64,000 nucleotides of DNA from Solirubrobacteraceae bacterium (GCA_035693425.1 DASSGR010000195.1:10032-74031), one strand, 5' to 3'; counted from the first letter of the stretch, positions 19,449-40,932 are shown. Numbers and translations are program-made. Notes: a model not told the origin generated them from the letters alone.

Positions 19449-19517
19449 GGCCTCCCCCGGCGCAGTTAAACAGAACCGTTCAAGGCGTGCGCCGGTTCCC
19501 GCTGCGAGACTTCATCC

Positions 19518-20483
19518 GTGGACGAAGAGCAGCTCGACGCCCACCTCGACACCGTGCTGATCGGCGGCCGCGAACGCCGCGAGATCGTGATCGCCGATTA
19601 CGACCCGGAATGGCCTCGCCGCTTCGAAGCCGAGCGCGAGCGGATCGGGGCGGCGCTCGGCGGCGGCGCCCTTCGCATCGAGCACATCGGCTCGACATCG
19701 GTACCGGGACTCGCGGCCAAGCCAATCGTCGACGTGCTGGTGGCGGTGTCACACGTCAGCGACGAATCGTCGTACGGCCCCGCGCTCGAGCGCGCCGGCT
19801 ACGAACTGCGCGTCCGCGAGCCCGAGCATCGGATGTACCGCACGCCGGCGCGAGACGTGCATGTGCACGTGTGGAACGAAGGCGACCCCGAGGTCGATCG
19901 CCATCTCGTGTTCCGCGATCGCCTGCGAGCGTCGCCCGACGACCGCAGCGAGTACGAACGCCTCAAGCGCTCCCTCGCCCAGCGCGATTGGAGCGACGTC
20001 AACCACTACGCCGACTCCAAGGGTCCGCTGATCGCGGCGATCCTCAACCGCGTCAAGCGATCTCACATTCGTCGCGCGCGATCTTCCGACGCGGACGCGG
20101 TCGCGGGCCTGCTTGGCCACCTCGGATACCCGACCGACGTTCACGCCGCCTCCGCGCAGCTTGGCCGTCTGCTCGATCGCGACGACGCCGGCGTGCTCGT
20201 ATATGACGACGGCGGCGGGCCGGTCGGCCTGATCACCTACCACGTCTTCGACCTGATCTACCGACCCCGGCCGCATTGCCGGATCACGGCGCTCGCCGTG
20301 AGCGCACAACGGCGACGGGAGGGCATCGCCCGGGCCCTCCTGGATGCAGTGCAAGCAATCGCTCGCGAGCGCGCCTGCTTTCGCATCGAGCTGACCACCC
20401 GGCCTGATCGCGCCGACGCGCTGCGCTTCTATGAGGCGTGCGGGTTCGCGGAGCGGCCGCGCCGCCTGGTCAAGCCGCTGTGA
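19518..20483 (+). CDS. GrpB/UPF0157 (nucleotidyltransferase-fold) domain fused to a GNAT acetyltransferase
   Basis: IEHIGSTSVPGLAAKPIVD...Y..SK in the N-half; LAVSAQRRREGIARALL...FYEACGF in the C-half; single frame. Confidence 0.82.
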   Translation: MDEEQLDAHLDTVLIGGRERREIVIADYDPEWPRRFEAERERIGAALGGGALRIEHIGSTSVPGLAAKPIVDVLVAVSHVSDESSYGPALERAGYELRVREPEHRMYRTPARDVHVHVWNEGDPEVDRHLVFRDRLRASPDDRSEYERLKRSLAQRDWSDVNHYADSKGPLIAAILNRVKRSHIRRARSSDADAVAGLLGHLGYPTDVHAASAQLGRLLDRDDAGVLVYDDGGGPVGLITYHVFDLIYRPRPHCRITALAVSAQRRREGIARALLDAVQAIARERACFRIELTTRPDRADALRFYEACGFAERPRRLVKPL

Positions 20484-26099: not shown

Positions 26100-26362
26100 T
26101 ACGCGTTCGCGAAGTAGTCGGCGTTGATCTTGGTGAAGTGCTTCCACTCGTCCGGCAGCTGATCCTCGGCGAAGATCGCGTCCACCGGACAGGCCTCGAC
26201 GCAAGCGTCGCAGTCGATGCACTCTTCGGGATCGATGTAGAGCTGGTTCACGTCGGCGAAGCCGGGCTCGTCTTCTGTCGGATGAATGCAGTCGACCGGG
26301 CAGACCTCAACGCAGGAGAGGTCCTTGAGGTCGATGCATGGTTCGGCGATCACATACGTCAT
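26099..26362 (-). CDS. fdxA: 7Fe ([3Fe-4S]/[4Fe-4S]) ferredoxin, FdxA/FdxC type
   Basis: MTYVIAEPCIDLKDLSCVEVCPVDCIH...PEECIDCDACVEACPVDAIF; ATGA overlap with glxD. Confidence 0.9.
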   Translation of the reverse strand: MTYVIAEPCIDLKDLSCVEVCPVDCIHPTEDEPGFADVNQLYIDPEECIDCDACVEACPVDAIFAEDQLPDEWKHFTKINADYFANA

Positions 26363-27699
26363 GTAGCGCTGATCGTACCCGGTATCCAACTGGTACCGGC
26401 AAGCGGCACGCGGGCCATCGCCGCCGCCTCGATCGTGAGCGCCACGAGATCCTCGGGTTCGAGGTTATGGACGTGGGACTTGCCGCACGCGCGCGCCAGG
26501 GTCTGGGCTTCGAGCGTCAGCGTCCGCAGGTAATTGGCCAGCCGCCGGCCGCCCACCGCGGGATCCAGGCGGGTCGCGAGCTCCGGGTCCTGGGTGGAGA
26601 TACCCGCGGGATCCAGGCCCGCCTGATAGTCGTCGTAGTAGCCGGCGGCCGATCCGATCGCGCGGTAGCCGTCGTCGTGCTCGGGCGCGTTGTCGCCGAG
26701 CGCAATCAGCGCGGCAACCCCGATGGACACCGCATCGGCGCCGAGCGCGAGTGCCTTCGCGACGTCGGCGCCGGTGCGGATTCCCCCGGACACAATCAGC
26801 TGCACCTCGCGGTGCATTCCCAGGTCGACCAACGACTCGACGGCCTGCGGGATCGCCGCGAGGATCGGGATCCCCACGTGCTCGATGAACACCTCCTGGG
26901 TCGCGGCCGTGCCGCCCTGCATGCCGTCGAGCACGATCGCGTCGGCGCCCGCCTTCACCGCCAGCGCGACGTCGAAGTAGGTACGCGACGCACCGATCTT
27001 GACGTAGATCGGGATCCGCCAGTCGGTGATCTCTCGCAGCTCCTCGATCTTGATCTCGAGATCGTCGGGACCCGTCCAGTCCGGGTGCCGGCAGGCGCTG
27101 CGCTGGTCGATGCCCTTGGGCAGATCGCGCATCTCGGCCACGCGGTCGGAGATCTTGTGCCCGAGCAGCATGCCGCCGCCGCCCGGCTTGGCGCCCTGAC
27201 CGACCACCACCTCGATCGCGTCGGCGCGCCGCAGGTCGTCCGGGTTCATGCCATAGCGCGACGGGAGCAGCTGGTACACCAGCACCTTGGAGTGCTCGCG
27301 CTCCTCGGGGGTCATCCCGCCGTCGCCGGTCGTGGTGCTGGTACCGACCTCCGTCGCTCCGCGCCCCAGCGCCTCCTTGGCCTGCGCCGACAGCGCGCCG
27401 AAGCTCATTCCCGCGATCGTGATCGGGATGTCGAGGTGGATCGGCTCGCGTGCGAACCTGGTGCCGATCGTCACGTCGGTGTCGCAACGCTCCCGGTAGC
27501 CCTCCAGTGGATACCGCGACACGCTCGCCCCCAGGAACAGCAGGTCGTCGAAGTGGGGCACGGCCCGCTTGGCGCCGAACCCCTTGATCGAGTACAGCCC
27601 CTCGCGCGCCGCTCGCTGGATCTCGGCGATCGTGTTGCGGTCAAACGTGGCCGACTCGCGCAGCCCTGGATGCCAGCCGTTACGGGCAGCGGCGGACAT
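26359..27699 (-). CDS. mgsC: FMN-binding glutamate-synthase-like protein, GlxD / N-methylglutamate synthase subunit C
   Basis: IAGMSFGALS, TGDGG, GQGAKPGGGG, SACRHPDWTGPDDL, DGMQGGT; the GltB Cys cluster is replaced by YDDYQAGLDPAGISTQDP, as in the GlxD lineage. Confidence 0.85.
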   Translation of the reverse strand: MSAAARNGWHPGLRESATFDRNTIAEIQRAAREGLYSIKGFGAKRAVPHFDDLLFLGASVSRYPLEGYRERCDTDVTIGTRFAREPIHLDIPITIAGMSFGALSAQAKEALGRGATEVGTSTTTGDGGMTPEEREHSKVLVYQLLPSRYGMNPDDLRRADAIEVVVGQGAKPGGGGMLLGHKISDRVAEMRDLPKGIDQRSACRHPDWTGPDDLEIKIEELREITDWRIPIYVKIGASRTYFDVALAVKAGADAIVLDGMQGGTAATQEVFIEHVGIPILAAIPQAVESLVDLGMHREVQLIVSGGIRTGADVAKALALGADAVSIGVAALIALGDNAPEHDDGYRAIGSAAGYYDDYQAGLDPAGISTQDPELATRLDPAVGGRRLANYLRTLTLEAQTLARACGKSHVHNLEPEDLVALTIEAAAMARVPLAGTSWIPGTISAT

Positions 27700-28415
27700 C
27701 AGTAGACCGCCACGTTCTCGACGTGGAAGTTGTAGAGCCGCCTGGCGGATCCATAGCGGCGGAACTCGGCGGGCGCGACGTCGTCGATCCCGGCGCGCTG
27801 GAGCAGCTCGCCCACCTGCGTGAGGTGCTCGTCGCCCATCTCCTTCTCGATGCAGTCGGCGCCCAGAGCGGCGACCGAGCCGCGCACGTACAGCCGCGCC
27901 TCGTACAGCGAATCGCCGAGCGCGTCGCCCGCGTCGCCACAAACCAGCAGCGCCCCGCGCTGCGCCATAAACGCCGCCATGTGACCGACGGATCCGCGCA
28001 CGACGATGTCGGCGCCTTTGAGCGAGATACCGCAGCGGGCCGAGGCGTCGCCGCGGATCACGAGCAATCCTCCGCGCGCAGTGGCACCAGCAGACTGGGA
28101 GGCGCTGCCATCGACGACGACTGCCCCCGACATCATGTTCTCGGCCACGCCGACGCCGCAGTTGCCGTGCACGCGGATCGTCGCCTGCTTGTTCATGCCG
28201 GCGCAGTAGTAGCCCACGTGACCCTCGATCTCGACCTCGTACGGCGCGTCGAGCCCGACCGCGATCGCATGCCTCCCGCCAGGGTTGCGCACGACCACGC
28301 GACCGCCGGGTCGGTCGGGGTCGACCTGGTGCAGGCGCTGATTGAGATCGCGAACGGAATCGGTCGCAAGGTCGAACGACAGGACCGCGTCCTGGGTGAC
28401 GTCGGCGGTGGCCAT
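27699..28415 (-). CDS. mgsB: GXGXG beta-helix protein, GlxC / N-methylglutamate synthase subunit B
   Basis: GHVGYYCAGMN, GVAENMMSG, SQSAGATARGG, RCGISLKG, GDSLYEA. Confidence 0.87.
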   Translation of the reverse strand: MATADVTQDAVLSFDLATDSVRDLNQRLHQVDPDRPGGRVVVRNPGGRHAIAVGLDAPYEVEIEGHVGYYCAGMNKQATIRVHGNCGVGVAENMMSGAVVVDGSASQSAGATARGGLLVIRGDASARCGISLKGADIVVRGSVGHMAAFMAQRGALLVCGDAGDALGDSLYEARLYVRGSVAALGADCIEKEMGDEHLTQVGELLQRAGIDDVAPAEFRRYGSARRLYNFHVENVAVY

Positions 28416-29323
28416 CAGGCGACCGAGGCCAGACCCCAGCTGTAGACGTGCCCCGGCGCCGGCTCCCAGGTGACTGCGTCCTCCGCGCCCGGTAGGACTG
28501 CGATTGCGCGATATTCCGAGGCCATCGCCACCCACTCGTCGGTCTCGGCCATCACGGCGGGCTTGCATGCGATCGGATCGCGCAGAACCGCGAACCCGTC
28601 CGCGGTCCCAACCGCAAACGTGTAAAAGCCATCGAGGTCATCGAGGCAGCCTTCGAGCGCCTGCTCGAGCGACGCTCCCTCGCGCAGGCGCCAGGTCAGG
28701 TAGCCCGCCGCGACCTCCGAATCATTGTCTGTCTGAAACCGGATCCCCTCGCGCTGGAGCGTGCGCCGCAACCGGTTGTGGTTGGACAGCGAGCCGTTGT
28801 GGACCAGGCACAGGTCCAGCCCGGTCGAGAACGGATGCGAGTGCTCGGTGGTGACGCGGCTCTCGGTGGCCATCCGGGTGTGACCGAGCGCGTGGCTTCC
28901 CTCGATCTCGGCCAGCTTGAAGGCACTGACGAACTCCCTGGGCGGGCCGGCCTCCTTGAAGATTTCGATCGTCTGTCCCGCGCTCATCAGCGTCAGCTCA
29001 GGATGGTGCTCGGCGAGCCACGCCTGGGCATCGGGGGCCTGCGCGTCGATTACGAACGTGCAGTGGCTCGCGCGGACGCTGGGCAGCGATGCGCCCCCGA
29101 ACTGCCGCTCGAGCTCGGCTCCGAGCATCTCCCAGTTGGGGTCGTGCGAAGCGGAGTGCAGCGACACCTTGCAGCAGCCGATCGGCGCCGGATCCCGGTA
29201 GAACGCCACCCCGGCGCTGTCGGGTCCGCGATCCGACAGCTGCAGGAGCATCTCCGACAGATGCCGGCCAAGCTGCTCTCGCAGTGCCGGTGACTTTGTG
29301 AAAAGCCCAGCTATGCCGCACAT
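28415..29323 (-). CDS. mgsA: Class II (Ntn) glutamine amidotransferase, GlxB / N-methylglutamate synthase subunit A
   Basis: MCGIAG N-terminal Cys, RGPDSAG, GHTRMATES, HNGSLSN, TDNDSEV, RDPIACKP. Confidence 0.87.
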   Translation of the reverse strand: MCGIAGLFTKSPALREQLGRHLSEMLLQLSDRGPDSAGVAFYRDPAPIGCCKVSLHSASHDPNWEMLGAELERQFGGASLPSVRASHCTFVIDAQAPDAQAWLAEHHPELTLMSAGQTIEIFKEAGPPREFVSAFKLAEIEGSHALGHTRMATESRVTTEHSHPFSTGLDLCLVHNGSLSNHNRLRRTLQREGIRFQTDNDSEVAAGYLTWRLREGASLEQALEGCLDDLDGFYTFAVGTADGFAVLRDPIACKPAVMAETDEWVAMASEYRAIAVLPGAEDAVTWEPAPGHVYSWGLASVA

Positions 29324-29377
29324 GCGAGCCACATTAGACAGTTGGGGAAATGGCTCCAATGGCGCACACGCGCACAC
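29324..29377 (-). promoter_or_regulatory. Leaderless-type promoter TTGGAG-N17-TAATGT-N7-ATG with an upstream tandem GTGTGCGC repeat
   Basis: -35 at 29354-29359, -10 at 29331-29336, repeat at 29362-29377; no SD. Confidence 0.55.
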
Positions 29378-29442
29378 TTTCGAGCCCGAATGTGGTCGGT
29401 GGTACTACAGCCTGAGAATCGCCTCGGACCTGAGCGAGCCGC

Positions 29443-31278
29443 TCAATCCGCCGGCGGCGCCCACGCGCCGAGCCGCTTTTGGGCCCGGCGCACCACGTGG
29501 AGCGCCTCCTTCAGATCCGCGCGCGCGATCGGCGGCAGGGCGCCCGGATCGATCAGGTTGTCGGGGGCGCCGCCCTCGGCGATCTGTGCGGCGTGGTGCT
29601 CGAACCGCAGGCGCGTGATCACCGACCAGGCCTCGCTGAGCCCGTCGGCGACGTCACGCTCCAGTCCCCCCACGTTCGCGACAGCCTCGATCCGGTCAAG
29701 CGTCGGCGAGATCGTGACCCCGTGCGCCAGCGCGTGGAAGCGCACCAGGTTGACGAGCGGGATGATCCCTCCGCGCTTGATGTCCAGGCGATCGGGCGGA
29801 TCGCCTTCGCGGCCGGTCGCCAGCTGACCGCGGAACCCCAGCGCCACCGGGTACCCGTTGGCGGTCCTGGCCATCAGGCGCATGAACTGTGGGTGCCGGC
29901 GCGCGTCGCGAATGTAGTCGGTGAGCTCGGAGACGAGCAGCAGGCCGCCCGCCGCTGGCCGGAAGTCGAACGCGACCGATGCGCGGATCAGGTGCGATTC
30001 GTCGGGCTCGGTGAGGCACTCGGCGAACGTGCGTAACCAGGCGCCCTTGGACATGCGCCACAGCCGCTTGCCGGCGAGTACGCCGTTGTTGTCGACGCCG
30101 ATTCCGCTCCTGGCCAGGCCGTCGTTGACGTCGGATCCGAGCCGCTCGAAGTAGGCGTCGACCGCCTCTTCCTCGCCGGGCTCGGGGTTGGCGTATGCGA
30201 GCGCGTTGTCCTGGTCGGATGCCAGCGTGAACTCGCGCCGCGCGGCGCTGCCCAGATCAAGCCAGGCCCAGGCGAGCGGGGCGGGTCCCTCGCGCCAGAT
30301 CGAGAAGTCGACCAGCCGCGCGACGATCGTGTCGTGCTGAAGGCTCAGCACCCGCCCGAGCTCGCGCGCGGGCACGCCGGCCCGCACCAGCAGCAGGAAC
30401 AGCCTGGGCAGCTCTTGCGTCGCGCGCACGAGCGCGTCCTCGTCGGCGGCCCCCAGGATCATGTGCCGCAGCGCGATCGGACTGCGCGCGTCGAGCCCCA
30501 GGAGGTCGCTCGCCGACACGATGCCGCAGACCCCGCTCGCATCGGTCACCGCCAGGTGCTCGGCGCCGGCCGCGACCATGTCGACGGCCGCCTCCACGGC
30601 GAGCTGCGCGACCGGGACGGTCGGGACGGGAGTGCGCGCGATCTCTCGGACCGGCGCGTCCAGGGCGACGTCGCCGCTTGTCACCGAGGCGCGCACGTCG
30701 GCGTCGGTGAGGATGCCGAGCCGATCGTCGTCGAGCCGGACGAGCAGGGCCGAGGTTGAGTCCTGGCCGAGGCGGCCGGCGGCCTGGCGCAGCGGCTCAT
30801 CGGCGTCGCAGAAGGTCGCCGCCCGCATGATCGCCGACACCGGCGTGGTCCCGACGTCGCGCAGCGCATGCACCGTGTGGCCGGCGCCGGTCAGCCGCTT
30901 TCGCATCGACGCCGCCACGTAGGTCGCGCCGGCGACCGTTCCCAGCAGCCGCCGCGACGCGTCAGCCGAGAACAGCAGGCATCGCGAGGGCTCCCGCGCG
31001 CGTACCGTGAACGCGGGCGCCATCCCCGTCAGCAGCGACGGATGCCCGAAGCATTCGCCCGGTTCGAGCACCTGGATGACCTCGCCCTCGTGAACGATGT
31101 CCATCGAGCCGTCGAGGATCACCCACAGTCCCAGCGCGGGAGCCCCGTCCTCGACCAGGGCGATATCGCCCGTATCGAAGGCGTGCTCCTGGGCCCCCTC
31201 GAGCGCCGCGCGGACGTCCTCCGGATCGATCCCATCGAACGGCGGGTGGCGCGCCAGGAGTGTGTAAAAGTTCTCCAT
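29443..31278 (-). CDS. cNMP-binding + CBS pair + DUF294/DUF294_C putative nucleotidyltransferase (catalytic motif intact)
   Basis: GECFGHPSLL (cNMP-like), CBS LGILTDADVR, LGSAARREFTLASDQDNAL, VAFDFR, LDIKRGGIIPLV. Confidence 0.88.
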   Translation of the reverse strand: MENFYTLLARHPPFDGIDPEDVRAALEGAQEHAFDTGDIALVEDGAPALGLWVILDGSMDIVHEGEVIQVLEPGECFGHPSLLTGMAPAFTVRAREPSRCLLFSADASRRLLGTVAGATYVAASMRKRLTGAGHTVHALRDVGTTPVSAIMRAATFCDADEPLRQAAGRLGQDSTSALLVRLDDDRLGILTDADVRASVTSGDVALDAPVREIARTPVPTVPVAQLAVEAAVDMVAAGAEHLAVTDASGVCGIVSASDLLGLDARSPIALRHMILGAADEDALVRATQELPRLFLLLVRAGVPARELGRVLSLQHDTIVARLVDFSIWREGPAPLAWAWLDLGSAARREFTLASDQDNALAYANPEPGEEEAVDAYFERLGSDVNDGLARSGIGVDNNGVLAGKRLWRMSKGAWLRTFAECLTEPDESHLIRASVAFDFRPAAGGLLLVSELTDYIRDARRHPQFMRLMARTANGYPVALGFRGQLATGREGDPPDRLDIKRGGIIPLVNLVRFHALAHGVTISPTLDRIEAVANVGGLERDVADGLSEAWSVITRLRFEHHAAQIAEGGAPDNLIDPGALPPIARADLKEALHVVRRAQKRLGAWAPPAD

Positions 31279-31372
31279 GTCGGAGGCCGCAATTGTGTTC
31301 GCATCGCGTCTGTGACGCGCTCCGGCGACATGCGAGCCTAGTGCTCCTCAGCACAACGTACCTGGAGGGAGC

Positions 31373-32956
31373 ATGGCCGACACTCCTGGCCCGCAGTACG
31401 ACGACGAGCTCGTCTACGAGTCCGCTGGGCTACCCAAGACCACCAACTGGTGGGGCGCATTCGTAATCGGCCTCGCGGGGACAATCCTCGTCACCGGAAT
31501 CGCGCCGGTGATGGTCACCGAGCTGGGGGCTGCATCCGTACCCGTGATCGTCGTGATCACGATCAGCGGCTACATCGTGTGCCTGTTGCTGGCCGAGCTG
31601 TCGGCGATGATGCCCGACCGCTCCGGCGGGCTGCCCGCCTACGCCTATCCGGCCTACAAGGACAAATGGCCGCGGTTTGCCGAACACGTCAACGGGTTCT
31701 CGGCATGGGCCTACTGGCTGGGATGGTTCCCGGTCGCCCCGCTGAACATGATCCTGGCGTCGTTCTACATCGTCGACCGCTTCAAGCTCAACGCCACCGC
31801 CGGAATCACGCCGATCCACACCTTCATCGCTTGGTGGACGCTGGGCATCGCGATTGTCGGCATCCTGCTCCTCGCGATTCCCGCGGTGAGGGGGCTGCGG
31901 TTCGGGACGGCTTTCGCCACAACGCTCGCGCTGCTGTCGATGATCCCGCTGACGTTCCTGGCGATCGCCTGGATCTTCCACCCGTCAGTCGTGGACTTCG
32001 GCCAGCTGTGGCACTTCCGCCACACCGACGGCAGCGGGTTCTTCACCTCGCTCTTCGGTCACAACTGGCTGACCTTGTACATAGCCTTCTCGTTCCTGTT
32101 GACGTGGAACGTGATCGCGATGGAGGCCGCCGCCTGCTACATCGGCGAGACCAAGAACCCCGACCGCGACGCGAAGATCGCGATGAACCTCGAAGGCCTG
32201 TACGGCCTATTCATCTACACGATGATCCCCGTCGCGTTCATCATCGTGCTCGGCCTTTCTGCACTGGGCAACCCCGCGCTCGTCGATCCCCAGACGATCT
32301 TCGTCCATTACGCCGCGGACGTGTTCGGGGCCGGGACCGGAAGCAACATCCTCGAGTGGCTGATCGCGATCATGCTGATCCTGGCCTTGATCCTGTCGGC
32401 GCTGAACGCGATCACCGGGACGGCTCGCTCGCTTCACCAGATGTCGACCGACGGGCAGTTCCCGCGCTTCTTCCAGCGGGTCAACAATCATGGCGTGCCG
32501 AACCGGGCGATGTGGTTCAACGTGGTTTGCTCGATCCTTGTGGTGTTCATGGGCGGCGCCGTCGAGATCTACACGTTCTCGAACGTCGGCTACCTGGCTG
32601 CCTTCATCCCGGTGCTGGTCGGCTACTACCTGCTGCGAAAGCACCGTCCGAACGTCCGGCGGCCGTTCAGGCTGCCCGAGTGGATGAAGTACGTGGCGCT
32701 GGCGATCGCGGGTGTCTACGCGATCATCTACTTCTACGGCGGGCCGACGTACGCCTCATGTACATGTAACGCGGCCGGTCGCAAGACGTTGCCCTACTAC
32801 TTCATCGGCTGGGTGGTGCTCCTGTCCTACCTGGGCTTCTACTGGTATCGCAAGCGGGTGGAGGACAAGCGCGCCGCTCCGGTCGAGGCTGCCGCAGCCG
32901 GTACGGCCGGAGCGGGGACAATCACGGCGAGCACGGCCGAGGGCGCCAGTCCGTGA
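31373..32956 (+). CDS. APC family amino acid/amine permease
   Basis: About 12 TM; AELSAMMPDRSGG, YIGETKNPDRD, RPFRLP; SD GGAGG. Confidence 0.9.
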   Translation: MADTPGPQYDDELVYESAGLPKTTNWWGAFVIGLAGTILVTGIAPVMVTELGAASVPVIVVITISGYIVCLLLAELSAMMPDRSGGLPAYAYPAYKDKWPRFAEHVNGFSAWAYWLGWFPVAPLNMILASFYIVDRFKLNATAGITPIHTFIAWWTLGIAIVGILLLAIPAVRGLRFGTAFATTLALLSMIPLTFLAIAWIFHPSVVDFGQLWHFRHTDGSGFFTSLFGHNWLTLYIAFSFLLTWNVIAMEAAACYIGETKNPDRDAKIAMNLEGLYGLFIYTMIPVAFIIVLGLSALGNPALVDPQTIFVHYAADVFGAGTGSNILEWLIAIMLILALILSALNAITGTARSLHQMSTDGQFPRFFQRVNNHGVPNRAMWFNVVCSILVVFMGGAVEIYTFSNVGYLAAFIPVLVGYYLLRKHRPNVRRPFRLPEWMKYVALAIAGVYAIIYFYGGPTYASCTCNAAGRKTLPYYFIGWVVLLSYLGFYWYRKRVEDKRAAPVEAAAAGTAGAGTITASTAEGASP

Positions 32957-33447
32957 CGGTGACAGCCGCGGCGGTGCGCAACCCGCAGCCGGAGGCAACC
33001 CAGCGGTTCGAGCGGATCCTGCTCGCGTCCGAGGGACGCCAGATCCCGGCCGCGGCGATCTCGAAGGTGATCGAGCTCGCCGCCCCCGGAGCGTTCGTGC
33101 ACGTGTTCACGATTGCGCGCGTGCACGGCGTGGCTTTCGGGCTCCCGAGCCCCGGACTGCTGCCGACCAAGCAGGAGTGGGCCGAGCAGCGCGACATCGT
33201 CGCCCAGGCGATCCGGCGGCTGCGCCGCAAGGGCCTGCAGGCCGACGGCCACGTTCTCGGAACCCGCAACGCCTTCAAGAAGATCATCAAGGAAGCCGCC
33301 GAGCATGACTGCCAGGCGATCGTGATGTCAGCCGACCCCGACCGCAACCGCGTGGTCGGGAACCTGCTCTGGACCCAGGAGCCCCAGCGGGTGCGCCGGC
33401 GCGCGAAGCTGCCTGTGTTCCTGGTGCTGGAGGACGACCAGTTGTAA
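32953..33447 (+). CDS. Universal stress protein (USP) family
   Basis: RILLASEG, II.EA.EHDCQAIVM, LPVFLV; GTGA overlap with the permease. Confidence 0.8.
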   Translation: MTVTAAAVRNPQPEATQRFERILLASEGRQIPAAAISKVIELAAPGAFVHVFTIARVHGVAFGLPSPGLLPTKQEWAEQRDIVAQAIRRLRRKGLQADGHVLGTRNAFKKIIKEAAEHDCQAIVMSADPDRNRVVGNLLWTQEPQRVRRRAKLPVFLVLEDDQL

Positions 33448-33479
33448 GTGCCTGCGCCGCTGCCGCTCGGCGCGTGCAC

Positions 33480-35261
33480 TCAAGGCCGGCCGTGCAGCCG
33501 CGCCAGCTTGATCGCGAGCTCGAGCGACAGCAGGTCGTCCTCGTCGAGGCGCAGGCCGGTCAGCTCCTCGATCCTGCCCAGCCGCTGTCGCAGGGTGTTG
33601 GGGTGGATGAACAGGGCACGCGCACTTTCGATCACGCTGCGGCGCTCGGCCAGGTAGCGCTCAAGCGTGTCGAGCAGGGCGGTGCGTCGCTTGCGGTCGT
33701 AGTCGATCAGCCTGTCGACCGCCGCCCGCATCCGGTCATAGGGCGCGTCCTCGGCGGCGATGTGGACGAGGTATCGGTAGGCGCCAACCTGTGAGTAGGC
33801 GATCGCGCCGCCCTGCCCCAGCAGCGCCCGGCCGATCGTCGCCGCGTCTACAGCCTCGCGGTACGCGCGCGAGGCGTTGGCCGGGCCTTCGTGAACGTCG
33901 CTGATGCCGATCGCGGCGTTGCCGCCCTCGCCGAGCTCGCGGCACTCGCGCATCAGCTCCTCGATCCTCTGCACCTGGCGCGCGCGCAGCGCGAGCACGG
34001 CTCGGACCGGACCGGGACCGGCGTCGATCGCGTTGTCGGGGGTGAGACCCGCCAGCTCGCGACCCAGCACTTCGGCCGCAGCGCGCCACTCACCCGACCC
34101 CTGCTCCTGGGCCGCCGCAGGCTCGGCGTACACCATCAGGTACGGCCCGTCGAGGTCGCAGCGCACCTCGGCGGCCTTGGCGGCCGCGAACGTGGTCGCG
34201 CCCGCCGCAAGCGCCTCGAACAGGTCCTTGACGATGTTCGCGTTGGTGAGGCCCTCGATCAGCTCAGCGCGCTTGAACGCGATCGCGGTCAGGTGAGCGA
34301 TCGCGCGCACCAACTCGGTGTCCTCGTCGGTGAACGGACGCGCGGCCGGGGCTCCCGCGCACAGCAGGCCGACTCGCTCGCCGCCCGCCGTCAACGGAGC
34401 GACCAGCAGGTCGGCCACATCTAGCTCTGGCCACAGCGTTCGCGCGGGAGGACGCTCGCCGCCGCCGTCGATCGCCGCGAGCAACAGGCCTGTTGCCGAC
34501 ATCGCCGGCCCGGGCAACTCCGTCTCCGGGTCGCGAGCTACCGGCGCCAGCGTCGCGGCCGCCGAGTCCACTCGGTAGAGCTGGCACACGGCGGCTCCCA
34601 GCAGGAGCCGGGTCCCGGCCACCACGACCTGTCCCAGGTCGGTTGCGTTCGTCGCCGCCGAGACCTCCCGCGCCAGTCCCGAAAGCCGCGTGAGACTGTC
34701 GACGCGACGGCGCTGCTGGTCGTACAGCTGTGCGTTCTCGATCGCGCCGCTGACCAGCGACGCGATGTGCACCAGCAGCTTCAGCGTGTCCTCGGTGAAT
34801 TCGTGCGGCGCCTTGGTGTGGAGCACGATCACCCCGATCGTGTCGCCCGCGCGCGCGAGGATCGGGACCGCCACCATCGATTGGAAGCGCTCCTCCTCGA
34901 GCTCGGGGATGTACTTCATGCGCGGGTCGTCCATCGCCTTGTCGCGGATGAACTCCGGGGTTCGGTGGCGCGCGACCCATCCGGTCAGTCCCTCGTCCAG
35001 CCCCATCTGCACCGTGCCGACGGCGTCGGCGAACACCGGAGACGCCGCCCGGACCGTGAGGCGGTCGCCCTCGAGCAGATAGATGAAGCAGGCGTGGCAA
35101 CCCGTCGCCTCGGTCGCCAGGTCGACGACGCCCTGGAGCATCGGCAGCAGCTCGAGCGACGACGAGACCAGCCTGATCACGCCGTAGAGCGTTTGATTTT
35201 CCTCCCGCAGCGCTCGCAGCTCCGAGCTACGAGGCGCCGCCGGTCCAGCGCTCACTGACAC
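33480..35261 (-). CDS. GAF-GAF-PucR/CdaR family transcriptional regulator
   Basis: GLTGWVARHR, SMVAVPI, C-terminal LLDTLERYL...ARALFIHPNTLRQRLGRIEELTG; GTG 35261 with AGGAGG. Confidence 0.88.
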   Translation of the reverse strand: MSVSAGPAAPRSSELRALREENQTLYGVIRLVSSSLELLPMLQGVVDLATEATGCHACFIYLLEGDRLTVRAASPVFADAVGTVQMGLDEGLTGWVARHRTPEFIRDKAMDDPRMKYIPELEEERFQSMVAVPILARAGDTIGVIVLHTKAPHEFTEDTLKLLVHIASLVSGAIENAQLYDQQRRRVDSLTRLSGLAREVSAATNATDLGQVVVAGTRLLLGAAVCQLYRVDSAAATLAPVARDPETELPGPAMSATGLLLAAIDGGGERPPARTLWPELDVADLLVAPLTAGGERVGLLCAGAPAARPFTDEDTELVRAIAHLTAIAFKRAELIEGLTNANIVKDLFEALAAGATTFAAAKAAEVRCDLDGPYLMVYAEPAAAQEQGSGEWRAAAEVLGRELAGLTPDNAIDAGPGPVRAVLALRARQVQRIEELMRECRELGEGGNAAIGISDVHEGPANASRAYREAVDAATIGRALLGQGGAIAYSQVGAYRYLVHIAAEDAPYDRMRAAVDRLIDYDRKRRTALLDTLERYLAERRSVIESARALFIHPNTLRQRLGRIEELTGLRLDEDDLLSLELAIKLARLHGRP

Positions 35262-35273
35262 CCGGCACCTCCT

Positions 35274-35357
35274 ATGTGCGCAACGCACATGCTAATGGCC
35301 CTCAAGGGGTGGCGACGGCCATTGGCAGGCCCTACCCATACCTATATACATGGCGCC
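35274..35357 (+). promoter_or_regulatory. Divergent control region: ATGTGCG-N3-CGCACAT and AATGGCC-N16-GGCCATT palindromes plus TTGGCA-N17-TATACA-N7-ATG
   Basis: Palindromes at 35274-35290 and 35294-35323; promoter geometry identical to that of mgsA. Confidence 0.55.
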
Positions 35358-36746
35358 ATGGCAACCACAGAGCAGGCGCAAACCACGCCCGAAAGTGCCG
35401 CCGACGAGGTTCGCCGCGTCGTCAGCGAGCAGGGCATCCAGTTCCTCTTCGCACAGTTCGTCGACATGCACGGCAAGCCGAGCGCCAAGCTCGTGCCCGC
35501 CCATCACATCGACGACCTGCTGACCGACGGAGCCGGGTTCGCCGGCTTTGCCGCCGGCGACATCGGCCAGGGGCCGCACGACCCCGACATGATCGCGATC
35601 CCCGACCCCCGCAGCCTGACGATCCTGCCGTGGAAACCCAGCGTGGCGCGGTTCGCGTGCGACGTCACGGTCGAGGGCGAGCCGTGGCCGTTCTGCCCGC
35701 GTACGATCCTGCGCAACGCGCTTGCCCGCGCCAAGGAGCTCGGCTTCGAGCCCCGGATCGGCGCGGAGCTCGAGTACTTCCTGCTGCGCCGGACCGAGGA
35801 CGGCGGGATCGAGCCCGCTGACCCACTCGACACGCTCGACCTCCCCTGCTACGACATGCGCGCGCTCACGCGCAACCTCGACTTCGTCTCGCTGGTGTCG
35901 CAGTCCGTCACGTCGATGGGGTGGGACAACTACGCGACCGACCACGAGGACGCCAACGGGCAGTTCGAGCAGAACTTCCAGTTCGACGACGCGCTGACGA
36001 CCTGTGACCGGGCGATCTTCTTCCGCTACATGGTCGAGTCGCTGGCGCAGGAACGCGGCCTGCTCGCGACGTTCATGCCGAAGCCGTTTGCGAACCTAAC
36101 CGGCAACGGTTGCCACTTCCACTTCAGCCTGTGGCGCGACGGCGAGAACCTGTTCGATTGCGACCCCGCTGACGACCCGCGCAGGCTGGGGCTGTCGCCG
36201 CTGGCGTACAACTTCATCGGAGGGCTCAAGGCCCACGCGAAGGCGTACATCGCGGTGACCGCGCCGACGGTCAACTCCTACAAGCGCCTGGTGGTGGGCG
36301 CACCGAACAGCGGCGCGACGTGGGCGCCCGCCTACATCAGCTACGGCTACAACAACCGCACGCAGATGCTCCGGATCCCCGACGCTGGGCGGATCGAGGA
36401 CCGCACGGTCGACGGCTCATGCAATCCGTACCTGGCGGCGACGGCGATGCTCGCCGCGGGCCTCGACGGGATCGAGCGCGAGCTCGACGCAGGCGAGCCC
36501 AACTCCGCCAACCTGTACGAGCTCTCTGCCGAGGAGCGAGAGGCGGCGGGCATCGACCTGCTGCCGGCGAACCTGCTCGACGCCACCCGCGAGCTCGAGA
36601 AGGACGACGTGTTGCGCAAGGCGCTGGGCAAGACGCGGGACGGCGACTACGTCGACTACTTCATCAAGGTCAAGCGCGGCGAGTGGCAGGCGGCGCACGA
36701 GCAGATCACGCAGTGGGAGCTCGACCGCTACCTGTCGCTGTTCTAA
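35358..36746 (+). CDS. gmaS: Type III glutamine synthetase-like protein, GlnT / gamma-glutamylmethylamide synthetase
   Basis: AKLVP...GAGFAGFA (GlnT signature), DHEDANGQFE, TFMPKPF...GNGCHFH, YNNRTQMLRIP, IEDR..DGSCNPYL; neighbours glxBCD. Confidence 0.82.
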   Translation: MATTEQAQTTPESAADEVRRVVSEQGIQFLFAQFVDMHGKPSAKLVPAHHIDDLLTDGAGFAGFAAGDIGQGPHDPDMIAIPDPRSLTILPWKPSVARFACDVTVEGEPWPFCPRTILRNALARAKELGFEPRIGAELEYFLLRRTEDGGIEPADPLDTLDLPCYDMRALTRNLDFVSLVSQSVTSMGWDNYATDHEDANGQFEQNFQFDDALTTCDRAIFFRYMVESLAQERGLLATFMPKPFANLTGNGCHFHFSLWRDGENLFDCDPADDPRRLGLSPLAYNFIGGLKAHAKAYIAVTAPTVNSYKRLVVGAPNSGATWAPAYISYGYNNRTQMLRIPDAGRIEDRTVDGSCNPYLAATAMLAAGLDGIERELDAGEPNSANLYELSAEEREAAGIDLLPANLLDATRELEKDDVLRKALGKTRDGDYVDYFIKVKRGEWQAAHEQITQWELDRYLSLF

Positions 36747-36752
36747 CGATTT

Positions 36753-37433
36753 CTAGGTAACGCCGAAGCGACGCGCGCTGGCCAGCCAGCTGTCCGCTCG
36801 CAGCAGCGAGCCGACGGTCTGCGGCTGCGTCGCGTTGAGGCGACTGGCCAGGGCGATGAACGCCTGCGCCGTGCAGAGCGCGTCGGCGAGTGCGTGGTGC
36901 GGCGCCTCGCCCGACTGACCGAGGAGTTTGAGCAACGTGGCGAGCGACAGCCGGGGCGGGGCGATCCCGTCGCGCCACTGCAGGAACAGCCGACCGAGAA
37001 TCTCGGTATCGACCGCGGCCGGGAGCCGCACCCGCAGTTGCGAGAACAGCGGCGCCAGGAACGTCCGCTCCACCGCTGCGGTGTGAAACACCGGGACGCG
37101 GCCGCTCAGCATCTCGAGCAACAGCTCGACGGCTTGCTCGAGCGGCGGCGCGTCGGCGAGGTCGACGACTCGCAGCTTGTGCATCAGCACGGCGTCGTGC
37201 TCGGATCGCCGTGCCGTTCGCACCAGCGTGTAGCGGCTGTCGCCGAGGATCAGGCGCCCGTCCTCGATCGGCACCGCGCCGATCGCGATGATCTCGTCCT
37301 TGGCGGGGTCCAGCCCGGTCAGCTCGAGGTCGATCGCGCACCAGCTCGCCTGTCGCCACGGCGTCTTGGAGTCTGGCCGGCCGACCGTCGCAAACGCCGC
37401 CGCGGCCTCGGAGCGAGGCGCGCGCAGCCTCAC
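36753..37433 (-). CDS. DEDDh 3'-5' exonuclease family protein (DnaQ-like, DUF294-associated type)
   Basis: AIDLELTGLDP (ExoI), VFHTAAVE (degenerate ExoII), HHALADA (ExoIII); GTGA overlap with the upstream gene. Confidence 0.87.
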   Translation of the reverse strand: MRLRAPRSEAAAAFATVGRPDSKTPWRQASWCAIDLELTGLDPAKDEIIAIGAVPIEDGRLILGDSRYTLVRTARRSEHDAVLMHKLRVVDLADAPPLEQAVELLLEMLSGRVPVFHTAAVERTFLAPLFSQLRVRLPAAVDTEILGRLFLQWRDGIAPPRLSLATLLKLLGQSGEAPHHALADALCTAQAFIALASRLNATQPQTVGSLLRADSWLASARRFGVT

Positions 37434-39127
37434 CCGCTCAGCCTTCGCTGCACGGCTGTCACGGCGCGGAACACGTCGCGCAGATAATCGCGCGTCAGCG
37501 GGCTGATGGCGACGGTCTGGATGCGGTCGTCGGGCGCTGCGCCCTGCGCAAGCTGCCGCATGTGATGGTCGATTCGCAGCTCGAGCGCGAGTTCGAATGC
37601 ATCCACCAGCGTCTGCGCGTCGCCGTCGTCGAGCACGCCGGCGGCACCGGCGACCCGCAACTTGTCCGGTGTCGAGCCCTCCACCACCCCGGCGGCTGCG
37701 CCAGCCCAGCGCGCGAGCTCGACGATCGGGATCACCGCCGCGCGCCGGATGTCGAGGATGTCGCTGCGCGTGCCGTCGAGCTCGAGCACGCGATCTGCGT
37801 CAAATCCAGTCGGCGGGCTGTAGTCGAGCGCGCGTCGGAGCAGCGCGCCCACCACGCGGTCGTGCTCGTCGCCCTCGGCGACGGGCAATGGATCCCGAGG
37901 CGTACCCCACAGCACGCGGCGCTCGACCAGCACGGTCAGCGAAAGCTCGTCGGCGCCGTCTGCCGCCAGCCACTGTGGCCCGCTGCGGGCAACGATCGCG
38001 GCCGCCAGACCGCAGCTCGTCAGCGCTGCAGAGACCGCCTCGATCCACCCGTCGGGCGGAGGCTCGCTGCATACGACCGCGCCCTGCGCGCGCGACGCCG
38101 GCGTGAACTCGCGGCGAGCCTGGCTGCCTACCGCGACCCACACCAAGCCGTCGTCGGGCAGCTGCATCGACGATCCCGCGAGCTCGATCGCGCGAACGGT
38201 CAGGGCGTCCACGAGCGCGGACAGCACGCGCGCGACCTCCACCGCACGCAGGTTCGCGGCATGAAGGTCCGACACGATCTCGGGGAGCCTTCCGGCCACC
38301 GTCGCCAGCGACTCGACGCTCTGCGCGCGCGCGATCGCGCGCCGCGCGCCGAACCAGGAGCGCGGCTGCACCGCGAACAGGTCGAGATCCTCGATCACGC
38401 CGACGAGCTGGCCGCGCTCGTTGACGACCGGGGCGTGGCGAATCCCGCGCTCGAGCAGCTCGAACAGAACCTCGCCGCCCAGCCTCCCCGGCGTCACAGA
38501 GAACGCGGGGTTCGTCATCACCCCCGCCACCGGAGCGCTCAGCGGTACTCCGGCGGCGACGATCCGGGTGCGGATGTCGCGGTCGGTGACGATCCCGAAG
38601 CCGCCGCCCCGCAGGTCGACAATCGCCGCGTTGGCTCCCGCCGCCGTCATCTGCCGGGCGACCTCGCGGATGCTGGTCATCGGCTCGCACCTGATCGTCG
38701 GCGCGCGCAGCAGGGTGGCGACCGGCTGGTGGGCGGGCTCGTGAACGCCGACGCGCAGCTCCCTGCTGCGTGCACGCTCGAGCAGTGGACGCGCGACCGC
38801 CGCGGCGATCCGATAGCAGAGCGTGTCCTCCGCTGCGCGCGCCTCGAATCCGGGCGGCAGTCCTGACAGCATCGCGGCGTGCCCGAACGCGTCTCCGGGA
38901 CCCAGGATGTCCAGGAGGCGGCCGTCGTGGACGATGTCGACGGCGCCGGAGTGGATCACGCGCAGGAACGTAACCGGGCCTCCATCCTCTGAGAGGATCA
39001 CCTCCCCGGCCGTGTAGAACTCGAGCTGGGTGTCGGCGACCAGCTCGCCGAGCTCCTCGGGCGCGAGCCCCGTAAACGGCGGACGCAGCGCCAGGAACCG
39101 CGCGATCTCGCTGAGGCCGGCTTCCAT
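37430..39127 (-). CDS. Second cNMP-CBS-DUF294 protein with a degenerate nucleotidyltransferase site
   Basis: GDAFGHAAML, CBS FGIVTDRDIR, VGSQARREFTPASRAQG (DQD lost), LDIRRAAVIPIV. Confidence 0.82.
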   Translation of the reverse strand: MEAGLSEIARFLALRPPFTGLAPEELGELVADTQLEFYTAGEVILSEDGGPVTFLRVIHSGAVDIVHDGRLLDILGPGDAFGHAAMLSGLPPGFEARAAEDTLCYRIAAAVARPLLERARSRELRVGVHEPAHQPVATLLRAPTIRCEPMTSIREVARQMTAAGANAAIVDLRGGGFGIVTDRDIRTRIVAAGVPLSAPVAGVMTNPAFSVTPGRLGGEVLFELLERGIRHAPVVNERGQLVGVIEDLDLFAVQPRSWFGARRAIARAQSVESLATVAGRLPEIVSDLHAANLRAVEVARVLSALVDALTVRAIELAGSSMQLPDDGLVWVAVGSQARREFTPASRAQGAVVCSEPPPDGWIEAVSAALTSCGLAAAIVARSGPQWLAADGADELSLTVLVERRVLWGTPRDPLPVAEGDEHDRVVGALLRRALDYSPPTGFDADRVLELDGTRSDILDIRRAAVIPIVELARWAGAAAGVVEGSTPDKLRVAGAAGVLDDGDAQTLVDAFELALELRIDHHMRQLAQGAAPDDRIQTVAISPLTRDYLRDVFRAVTAVQRRLSG

Positions 39128-39197
39128 CCTTCAAAGCTACAGCCCGTGCGTGGGTCTGTACGAATTCGTGCGAAGGCCCGCGGCAAGTGTCGCGACA

Positions 39198-39815
39198 CTA
39201 GGCGAGCAGGCCCAGGCGCTGTCCGCGCTGCACCGCCTCGGTGCGGTTGCGCACGCCGAGCTTTCGGTACACCGAGCTCGTGTGCTCCTTGATGGTGTGC
39301 TTGGACAGGTGAAGCTGCTCGGCGATCTCCGGGTTGGTCGCGCCCGAGGCCATCAACGACAGCACCGCGCGCTCGCGGTCGGTCAGGCCGAGCGCACCCT
39401 GCCGGTCCTGTCGCCCGAACACCATCTTGCCCATGCCCACGGCGCGCACCGCCGCGGCGATCCGCGCGGCCGACCAGTCCTTGTACGCGAATCCGGACGC
39501 GCCCGCAGCGCGCGCGGCGTGCGGCGAGATCTCCCCCGCGCCCGAGAACAGCAGCACCCGGGTGCTCGGGTCCGTCGCACGAATCCGCTCACAGACCTCG
39601 GCGCCGGACTCCTCGCCGATGAACAGGTCCACGAGCGCCACGTGCGGGCGATATCGAGACGCCATCGCCAACGCCTCGTCGCCCGAGTGTGCGCTGACGC
39701 AACGCTCGACCCACGGCTGCTGCGTGAGCATCAGGCGAAAGCCCCAGTGCACGACATCATGATCGTCGACGACCAGCACGCGCAGGCGCTCGGGGCTGCG
39801 GGTCTCGTCAGCCAT
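39198..39815 (-). CDS. NarL/LuxR family response regulator
   Basis: VLVVDDH, LVD phospho-Asp, LTDRERAVL...TNPEIAEQLHLSKHTIKEH. Confidence 0.92.
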   Translation of the reverse strand: MADETRSPERLRVLVVDDHDVVHWGFRLMLTQQPWVERCVSAHSGDEALAMASRYRPHVALVDLFIGEESGAEVCERIRATDPSTRVLLFSGAGEISPHAARAAGASGFAYKDWSAARIAAAVRAVGMGKMVFGRQDRQGALGLTDRERAVLSLMASGATNPEIAEQLHLSKHTIKEHTSSVYRKLGVRNRTEAVQRGQRLGLLA

Positions 39816-40932
39816 CGTGCGGGACCACGAGGCGAACCTTCCACGTGCCCGGCTCCCGCTCGCCGAACTCGATCACCCCGCCGCTGTGCAATGCCTCGAG
39901 CGCGGCGAGCCGCAGACCCATCCCGGGCCGCCGCTGACGTCCGTTGACGCCGTCGTTTGAGACTTCCAGGACGAACGCGCCGTCGTGCCGGCCGACCCGG
40001 ACCTCGACCTTGGTGGGGGTGGCGTGCTTGTGCGCGTTGCGCACGGCCTCGGCCAGCACCGACTGGGCCAGCGGCTCGAGCGCCTGCGGGACCCCCTCAT
40101 CGGGTGCCTGCTCAAGCGTGAGTCCCAGCTCAGGATGCATCCGCGCGAGTCGTTTGACCTCCTCGGTGAACGTCGTCTGCGTCGCGCGGGGCGCCCGGCC
40201 CAGAGGCCGCTGCAGCGCCGTGCGCAGGTCCACCAGCGCCGCCTGCGTCTCTGAGGCACATCGCTTGCGCGCGTCGCCGGGCAGGTCGCCCTCGCCGTCA
40301 AGTGCCATCGACACGCCGAACAGACGCTGGATCACGCCCTCGTGGATCTCGCGTGCCAGATCGATCCGCTGCTCGAGCTGTCGCGCGGTCTCGGCCTGAG
40401 TTGCGACGATCCGCGCGACCGACGCCAGCGCTGCCGTCTTTCCCAGCGTCCACAGCAGGTACCGGTCGGCGTCTGAGAGCTCGGCCGCGGGCATCAGGCG
40501 ATCGGCCAGCATCACGCCGACCGCCCATCCGGCGGCGGTCATCGGCGCGCATATGAGACGCACCGGCTCCGGGAACAGACCCGCGTACTCGGAGGGGAAC
40601 TGGTCGCTGACGTCGCCAGCGATTTCGACCACGCGATCCTCGCGAAGTGCGCGCGCCGCGATCGGCGCCGACTCGACGGTCACGTAGGCCTCGGCGAACT
40701 GCTCGAGGTCCAGTCCGAAGGCGCCCGCCGCGCGGACGCGGCGCCGGGCCGGGTCGTAGCGAAAGATGATCGCCCGGCGCATCCGGGCCAGGCGGCACAC
40801 CGCCTCGCACAAGCGGTCATAGACGGCGTCGCCGCTAGAGGTTGGGCCCTCGGACTGAGACAGCACGCCCACGAACAGCTCGAGGGCCTCGATCCCCACG
40901 GTGCTGCGACCCGGTTCGGTGGATCCCTCCAT
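39808..40932 (-). CDS. Cytoplasmic GAF sensor histidine kinase (HisKA_3 type)
   Basis: GAF; AREIHEGVIQRLF H-box, EAVRNAHKHA N-box, SNDG and GMGL G-boxes; no TM. Confidence 0.82.
   Translation of the reverse strand: MEGSTEPGRSTVGIEALELFVGVLSQSEGPTSSGDAVYDRLCEAVCRLARMRRAIIFRYDPARRRVRAAGAFGLDLEQFAEAYVTVESAPIAARALREDRVVEIAGDVSDQFPSEYAGLFPEPVRLICAPMTAAGWAVGVMLADRLMPAAELSDADRYLLWTLGKTAALASVARIVATQAETARQLEQRIDLAREIHEGVIQRLFGVSMALDGEGDLPGDARKRCASETQAALVDLRTALQRPLGRAPRATQTTFTEEVKRLARMHPELGLTLEQAPDEGVPQALEPLAQSVLAEAVRNAHKHATPTKVEVRVGRHDGAFVLEVSNDGVNGRQRRPGMGLRLAALEALHSGGVIEFGEREPGTWKVRLVVPHDG

Follow-up and report, generated by a model that had tools for sequence, protein, structure and literature searches.

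We report that, in a 64,000-nt stretch of DNA from a Solirubrobacteraceae bacterium (GCA_035693425.1, DASSGR010000195.1:10032-74031; hereafter the window), positions 26359-40932 form a conserved Solirubrobacteraceae island for predicted amine assimilation (gmaS, mgsABC, an APC permease-universal stress protein (USP) pair and a GAF-PucR regulator), and that two members of the cNMP-CBS-DUF294 nucleotidyltransferase plus DEDDh exonuclease regulatory module are embedded in it. Copy 1 (29443..31278, minus strand; 611 aa) has an intact catalytic motif, whereas copy 2 (37430..39127, minus strand; 565 aa), which is coupled to the exonuclease gene exoA (36753..37433, minus strand; Pfam RNase_T), is predicted to be catalytically dead. 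An anatomy of putative writer, dead paralog and candidate eraser is real, as read from the sequence, and copy 2 is predicted to be a conserved pseudoenzyme under strong purifying selection, which is strongest on its sensor domains. What is new here is a known orphan module with a dead, exonuclease-coupled transferase.

Both copies matched cNMP_binding, CBS, DUF294 (PF03445) and DUF294_C (PF10335) of Pfam above the cut-off, and they share 29% identity end to end (E 4e-62). The alignment to PF03445 spans model positions 2-137 of 138 in copy 1, and 2-102 of 138 in copy 2. A first-pass annotation of the window had placed two cNMP-CBS-CBS-DUF294 paralogs on either side of the permease, USP, regulator and gmaS genes, and had located a DQD motif in copy 1 at 30208-30216 and the corresponding RAQ of copy 2 at 38084-38092. 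The Pfam and NCBIfam scans bore out the arrangement, and both motif coordinates were exact. The overlap through which it had coupled copy 2 to the exonuclease was likewise confirmed: the GTG start of the exonuclease overlaps the TGA stop of copy 2 as GTGA.

The catalytic signature expected of these transferases is G-x11-[DE]-x-[DE] followed by a third carboxylate. The copy 1 motif (30208..30252, minus strand) reads LGSAARREFTLASDQD, that is G343-x11-D355-Q-D357, and D438 (within 'AFDFR') supplies the third acid. The degenerate motif of copy 2 (38084..38128, minus strand) reads VGSQARREFTPASRAQ, or G334-x11-R346-A-Q348, so that R346 and Q348 stand where the two Asp are expected and RAQ replaces DxD. 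The initial statement that copy 2 had lost these acids thus holds for the DxD, but not for the third position, where a near-invariant Glu (E402, 'LVERR') is kept as the only acid. Alignment to copy 1 revealed two deletions in the transferase core of copy 2; the G-S phosphate-binding motif is retained. The DxD is absent in 12/12 copy-2 orthologs of the same genus, where it is replaced by IAR, DRR, IPR, VRR, TPQ, SAG, VPR, RAR or RAQ, and in all 118 public proteins with at least 69% identity to copy 2. Among the public orthologs an Arg occupies the second Asp position in ∼79% of cases, with varying replacements (IAR, TAR, VAR, DRR, IPR and others), and no new conserved acid was found near the former DxD in the ortholog alignment. 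When the triad state of distant homologs was read from alignment columns, 81 of the 89 full-length DUF294 representatives (clustered at ≤50% identity) kept the full acid triad, which indicates that acid loss is rare in DUF294 proteins.

Selection on copy 2 was estimated by comparing this genome with one 94%-identical metagenomic ortholog. The ratio of nonsynonymous to synonymous substitution rates (dN/dS) was 0.085 for copy 2 as a whole, 0.105 for its dead transferase domain and 0.0 for its CBS pair; these values are similar to that of gmaS (0.098), and the exonuclease gave 0.17. More than 130 orthologs of copy 2 are intact and of full length, and many residues are invariant among them. Domain conservation is inverted between the two copies: the transferase domain is the best-conserved part of copy 1 (0.75) and the worst-conserved part of copy 2 (0.57), in which the cNMP domain is the best conserved (0.78). 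The predicted structure of copy 2 had a predicted local distance difference test score (pLDDT) of 74, with its minimum over residues 335-345, where the active site used to be, and among the 50 Foldseek matches listed there was no GlnE match, only CBS and cNMP matches. A maximum-likelihood tree gives copy 2 a long stem (0.88). Because the DxD is absent in all orthologs while dN/dS is low and domain conservation is maintained, copy 2 is best described as a predicted pseudoenzyme that is conserved, and not as a decaying gene; on this point the dead paralog proposed at the outset is well sustained.

The exonuclease carries Exo I as D-L-E and Exo III as H-x4-D (HHALADA), and both are kept by all orthologs. 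In Exo II a Glu stands in place of Asp (HTAAVE); this Glu is constant in all Solirubrobacteraceae orthologs, whereas a Gaiellales homolog has Asp. The catalytic residues are kept alike with a dead or an active upstream DUF294 partner, and among the orthologs examined the exonuclease with conserved catalytic residues was always coupled to copy 2. The enzyme, with its conservative Glu at Exo II, is probably still active. The genome has only two RNase_T-family genes; the second is on a different contig, within an open frame of 610 aa. A 753-aa copy 2::exonuclease fusion (P0115, ENA contig_89430), the sole fused protein encountered, was considered as Rosetta-stone evidence and rejected; it is probably a frameshift or assembly indel artefact, since the neighbouring PucR and permease genes on that contig are fragmented.

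Copy 1 looks like a writer, because it combines the G-x11-D-x-D motif with a predicted fold closest to those of the protein AMPylators GlnE and DrrA. G343, S344 and D355 are invariant among copy-1 orthologs; 74 of 80 have DQD, four have DQE or DHE, and two did not match the pattern. Across the 12 genomes of the genus SDQD is kept by every copy-1 ortholog. The AlphaFold2 model of copy 1 (mean pLDDT 81) had as its best three PDB matches by Foldseek the GlnE N-domain (1v4a, E 2.5e-8), the GlnE C-domain (3k7d, 3.6e-8) and DrrA in complex with Rab8a (6yx5, 9.1e-8), over 336-397 aligned columns. All three are protein AMPylators, and the predicted model shares with GlnE and DrrA a transferase plus helical substrate-binding domain fold. 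No polymerase, CCA-adding, poly(A)-type or cGAS/CD-NTase-type protein was present among the 50 matches listed. A sequence search of the PDB returned no solved DUF294 domain, only cNMP and CBS matches. The genome has no GlnE, and copy 1 has no GlnE Pfam domain.

A feature of the sensor part is common to all DUF294 paralogs examined, including those at 29443-31278 and 37430-39127: their cNMP domains have an invariant Gly-His (FGH). Canonical cAMP/cGMP binders have Gly-Glu at this place in the phosphate-binding cassette, and the ligand of the DUF294 paralogs may be no standard cyclic nucleotide.

A third paralog, copy 3, is located outside the window on another contig (C211:10133-17739) and has an intact SDVD; D-x-D is kept by every copy-3 ortholog of the 12 genus genomes. 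It belongs to an APC permease-GMC oxidoreductase-copy 3 operon with an adjacent aldehyde dehydrogenase gene, a neighbourhood that looks like choline or amino-alcohol catabolism. In the maximum-likelihood DUF294 tree the copy-1 clade stands apart from a clade of copy 2 and copy 3, so that by descent copy 2 groups with copy 3 and not with copy 1. Two Solirubrobacteraceae metagenome-assembled genomes (MAGs), G041 and G042, have at the copy-2 position a DUF294 protein with an active motif (SDAD), in the order DUF294-exo-gmaS-PucR-USP-APC-copy1-mgsA, and this protein groups with copy 3 (98/95 support). A kinase and a NarL-type regulator accompany copy 2-exo across the genus, with the regulator adjoining copy 2 in most of its genomes; no homolog of either was found within the 8.7 kb retrieved from upstream of G041's active pair.

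An exonuclease gene, exoB, 48-50% identical to exoA, lies downstream of copy 3 in 4/12 genus genomes and is absent from this genome and seven others. Where relatives have the exonuclease after copy 3, this genome encodes a 248-aa protein that matches NTP_transf_5 only weakly, below the cut-off. The topology of the exonuclease tree follows that of the DUF294 tree, exoB grouping with the G041-type exonuclease (92/92) apart from exoA, and this congruence shows that the DUF294-exonuclease pair duplicated as a unit. Copy 2 descends from an active, exonuclease-coupled ancestor, from which it differs by the loss of the metal-binding DxD and of a portion of the core. The genome in hand presents complementary losses: pair A has a predicted dead transferase and a putatively live exonuclease, and pair B (copy 3) a putatively live transferase and no exonuclease.

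The linkage of these genes was analyzed in 80 public loci around copy-1 orthologs, taking as denominators the loci with enough flank. The APC permease is adjacent to copy 1 in 66/71 loci, Gaiellales included, and the USP is linked to it in 67/71; mgsA lies directly downstream in 62 of 75, and gmaS within 7 kb in 55 of 64. Conserved linkage to gmaS and the permease, a neighbourhood check that the first-pass annotation had named beforehand, is thus evident. In the Gaiellales orthologs (∼50% identity) APC-USP-copy 1 is kept, whereas the arrangement of gmaS and mgs differs; the most constant partner of copy 1 is therefore the permease-USP pair, and not gmaS. Copy 2-exo adjoins gmaS in most genomes, sometimes with intervening insertions. 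It also persists in two genomes (G007 and G014) that lack both copy 1 and gmaS. In G007 (C9:170000-189999) the order is HK-RR-cupin-arginase family-C-N hydrolase-copy2-exo, with HK and RR denoting the histidine kinase and the response regulator, and the dead pair is here beside a different nitrogen catabolic set, agmatine/polyamine-like. Conversely, gmaS is present without any DUF294 in two genomes of sister families (G035 and G036). The earlier proposal was of a writer/dead-paralog/eraser switch built into a methylamine-type cluster. Its anatomy is real and the island is conserved, but copy 2-exo is tied exclusively to neither copy 1 nor gmaS.

We tentatively favour, at somewhat below an even chance, an explanation in which copy 2 serves the exonuclease as a subunit, active paralogs write and the exonuclease erases. 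Copy 2, itself without catalysis, would sense a ligand and recognise the substrate on behalf of the exonuclease, as its subunit. A nucleotide would be added by the active paralogs, copy 3 on grounds of descent and copy 1 on grounds of position, to a target through which amine uptake or assimilation is controlled. A protein target seems most likely, given the fold precedent of GlnE and DrrA. The exonuclease would then hydrolyse the phosphodiester (R-O-P-5'-NMP + H2O -> R-OH + 5'-NMP, where NMP is a nucleoside monophosphate); this chemistry is plausible because it is the same as the normal DEDDh reaction, with the target replacing the penultimate nucleotide.

Several points weigh against this explanation. 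A literature search (DUF294, COG2905, PA3232/3233, and actP with nucleotidyltransferase) returned no solved function and no biochemically supported substrate for DUF294 or its exonuclease, and we know of no precedent for a DEDDh enzyme as a protein de-nucleotidylase. Across bacteria, DUF294 is linked to transporters of unrelated families (SSS, APC), which argues against a conserved site on the transporter. Furthermore, only one of six Gaiellales copy-1 loci has an adjacent exonuclease, so that writers can exist without a dedicated eraser. A farther-reaching form of the proposal, which we regard as rather improbable, makes the canonical DUF294 protein bifunctional, being both a writer and the targeting/sensor subunit of a new class of DEDDh de-nucleotidylase. 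Copy 2 would then be a natural separation-of-function allele that acts as eraser-adaptor only, copies 3 and 1 would write, and the whole would be a reversible switch on amine uptake, gated by cNMP and adenylate.

The module could instead act on RNA. In this alternative the exonuclease would be an ordinary 3'-5' RNase with copy 2 as its ligand-gated regulatory subunit, the active DUF294 proteins would tail RNA 3' ends (transporter mRNA, small RNA or tRNA), and expression of the permease and assimilation genes would be set after transcription. The closest sequence relatives of the exonuclease are indeed proofreading or RNase-T-type nucleases, and control at the RNA level would account for the linkage of the module to unrelated transporter families. 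However, in structure the transferase domain comes closest to GlnE and DrrA, which AMPylate proteins, and the matches listed include no polymerase, CCA-adding or poly(A)-type enzyme; DUF294_C, in turn, belongs with the helper domains of GlnD and GlnE (PMC3710099). We consider control of this kind unlikely, though a serious competitor.

A second messenger is clearly improbable. Here the active DUF294 proteins would make a linear or cyclic oligonucleotide that the exonuclease degrades, and copy 2 would be a receptor or sensor that no longer synthesises it. Pol-beta-fold enzymes of the cGAS/DncV class make nucleotide signals and DEDDh oligoribonuclease degrades dinucleotides, and the G-S phosphate-binding motif kept by copy 2 is consistent with such a receptor. 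Against it, the fold is GlnE/DrrA-like with no cGAS/CD-NTase-like structural match listed, and the matches from a PADLOC scan were all to generic cNMP-domain and DEDDh models, with no signature of CBASS or another defence system.

In the scheme of the first-pass annotation copy 1 would write for copy 2-exo, with the tail of the divergent APC permease or GmaS as target. The presence of these genes in one conserved island speaks for it, as do the lack of GlnE in the genome and Tyr417 of GmaS (NLYEL), which corresponds in position to the tyrosine adenylylated in GlnA. Glutamine synthetases not subject to adenylylation have this tyrosine too, and as a marker of adenylylation Tyr417 was rejected, being present but not discriminating. 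For the permease tail and for GmaS there is no support beyond proximity. Moreover, copy 2 is sister to copy 3 and not to copy 1, the G007 and G014 genomes keep copy 2-exo without copy 1 or gmaS, and G035 and G036 have gmaS without any DUF294. The writer role of copy 1 keeps the backing of its motif and predicted GlnE/DrrA-like fold, but this pairing with copy 2-exo we regard as very unlikely. That copy 2 is a functionless relic in decay, as its lost DxD, core deletions and long stem branch might suggest, has next to no probability and is refuted by the selection analysis (dN/dS 0.085 overall, 0.105 in the dead domain) and by the many intact, full-length orthologs with their invariant residues.

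The DUF294-exonuclease pair is found in many bacterial and archaeal phyla, beside nutrient transporters and with mutant phenotypes. In Bacilli, DUF294 and dnaQ form operons with nitrogen transporters (PMC3412718), and PA3232-PA3235 constitute the actP cluster (PMC9765439). COG2905 and RNase-T neighbours showed cofitness with a symporter subunit, whose expression, in the authors' speculation, requires them (10.1101/072470). Deletion of PP_0353/PP_0354 gave mild growth phenotypes, and the function was called unclear (2026 preprint, 10.64898/2026.09.07.749794). The pair described here resembles the COG2905 pairs of Pseudomonas aeruginosa (PA3233/PA3232, in the actP cluster) and P. putida KT2440 (PP_0354/PP_0353) in its domain architecture, in its transferase-then-exonuclease order and in having a transporter adjacent. 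It differs from them in that the exonuclease-coupled transferase is predicted to be dead, with active paralogs elsewhere, in that the context is of amine type (gmaS/mgs, APC permease) rather than acetate/carboxylate (SSS/ActP), and in its two-component partner, which is of GAF-HisKA_3/NarL type.

The predicted transferase and helical domains of copy 1 are closest to GlnE (1v4a/3k7d), and G-x11-D-x-D is common to both. GlnE contains a pair of homologous transferase domains that work in opposition, one adenylylating and the other removing the modification, a combination comparable to the paired copies here. Both GlnE domains, however, retain their acids, removal is carried out by the second transferase domain with no exonuclease, and copy 1 differs in having cNMP and CBS sensor domains. 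With Legionella DrrA/SidM and SidD the likeness lies in the structural match (6yx5) and in the logic, in which writer and eraser are encoded by separate genes. In Legionella, the writer DrrA is secreted as an effector with host Rab1 as its target, and the eraser SidD is PP2C-like in fold; the candidate eraser of the present system, which would be a housekeeping regulator, is a DEDDh nuclease.

A lineage that keeps the exonuclease together with a dead but selected transferase implies that the DUF294 protein may have an essential non-catalytic job with the exonuclease, and that transferase and exonuclease activities could be supplied from different gene pairs. The value of the locus is as a natural separation-of-function case for a widespread orphan gene pair. 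It also points to a so far undescribed layer of regulation over the methylamine-type assimilation of nitrogen in abundant soil Actinomycetota.

The gene order of the island was established from an open reading frame (ORF) listing and the Pfam/NCBIfam scans of the window. The order HK-RR-copy2-exo-gmaS-PucR-USP-APC-copy1-mgsABC is conserved as a syntenic block within Solirubrobacteraceae, being shared by at least 10 genus genomes and by dozens of public MAGs, and because of this synteny the arrangement is not due to chance. The sensor kinase gene (GAF-HisKA_3-HATPase; 39808..40932, minus strand), assigned from Pfam and synteny, overlaps the gene for the NarL/LuxR-type response regulator (Pfam Response_reg and GerE; 39198..39815, minus strand), which is located 70 bp upstream of copy 2. 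The type III glutamine-synthetase-like ligase (GmaS/GlnT type; 35355..36746, plus strand) scored 613.7 bits with TIGR03105 (cut-off 469.6); its ORF opens at 35274, and ortholog gene calls of 463 aa have a start equivalent to 35355. Divergent from gmaS is the GAF-GAF-GGDEF_2-PucR helix-turn-helix regulator gene (Pfam; 33480..35288, minus strand), which probably ends near 35243, since public gene calls are of 587 aa.

The APC-family permease gene (31373..32956, plus strand; Pfam AA_permease_2, 4.8e-46) is divergent from copy 1, from which a 94-bp spacer separates it. The USP gene (32953..33447, plus strand; Pfam Usp) overlaps the permease stop by 4 nt, and its product, read by eye, is without the G-2x-G-9x-G(S/T) ATP motif. 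On the other side of copy 1 are the genes for an mgsA-like class-II glutamine amidotransferase subunit (28415..29377, minus strand; Pfam GATase_6/7), an mgsB-like GXGXG/FwdC-like subunit (27699..28568, minus strand; TIGR03122 domain match 1.6e-15, syntenic) and an mgsC-like subunit with the glutamate-synthase FMN domain (26359..27942, minus strand; NCBIfam glutamate synthase large subunit domain, 4.4e-38). The mgsC-like gene is syntenic in relatives with 76-94% identity, and its real start is probably 3' of the ORF start.

With the gmaS-mgsABC-mgdABCD clusters of methylotrophic Proteobacteria the island shares a GmaS-type ligase above the TIGR03105 cut-off and a three-subunit split glutamate-synthase-like set. 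It differs in that a block of sensor, transporter and modifier genes splits the cluster open, and in that mgdABCD is absent from the window, which leaves it short of the gmaS + mgsABC + mgdABCD complement that defines an N-methylglutamate (methylamine) cluster. The only SoxD/MgdB-like gene of the genome is on another contig (C82:1443-1670). For these two reasons the amine substrate is a prediction, and from the location of the SoxD-like gene the pathway beyond N-methylglutamate is unlinked or different. Elsewhere in the window, at 17181-20483 and apparently unrelated to the cluster, a 755-aa DUF6351 tannase-like protein (720 bits) adjoins a GrpB-GNAT acetyltransferase fusion.

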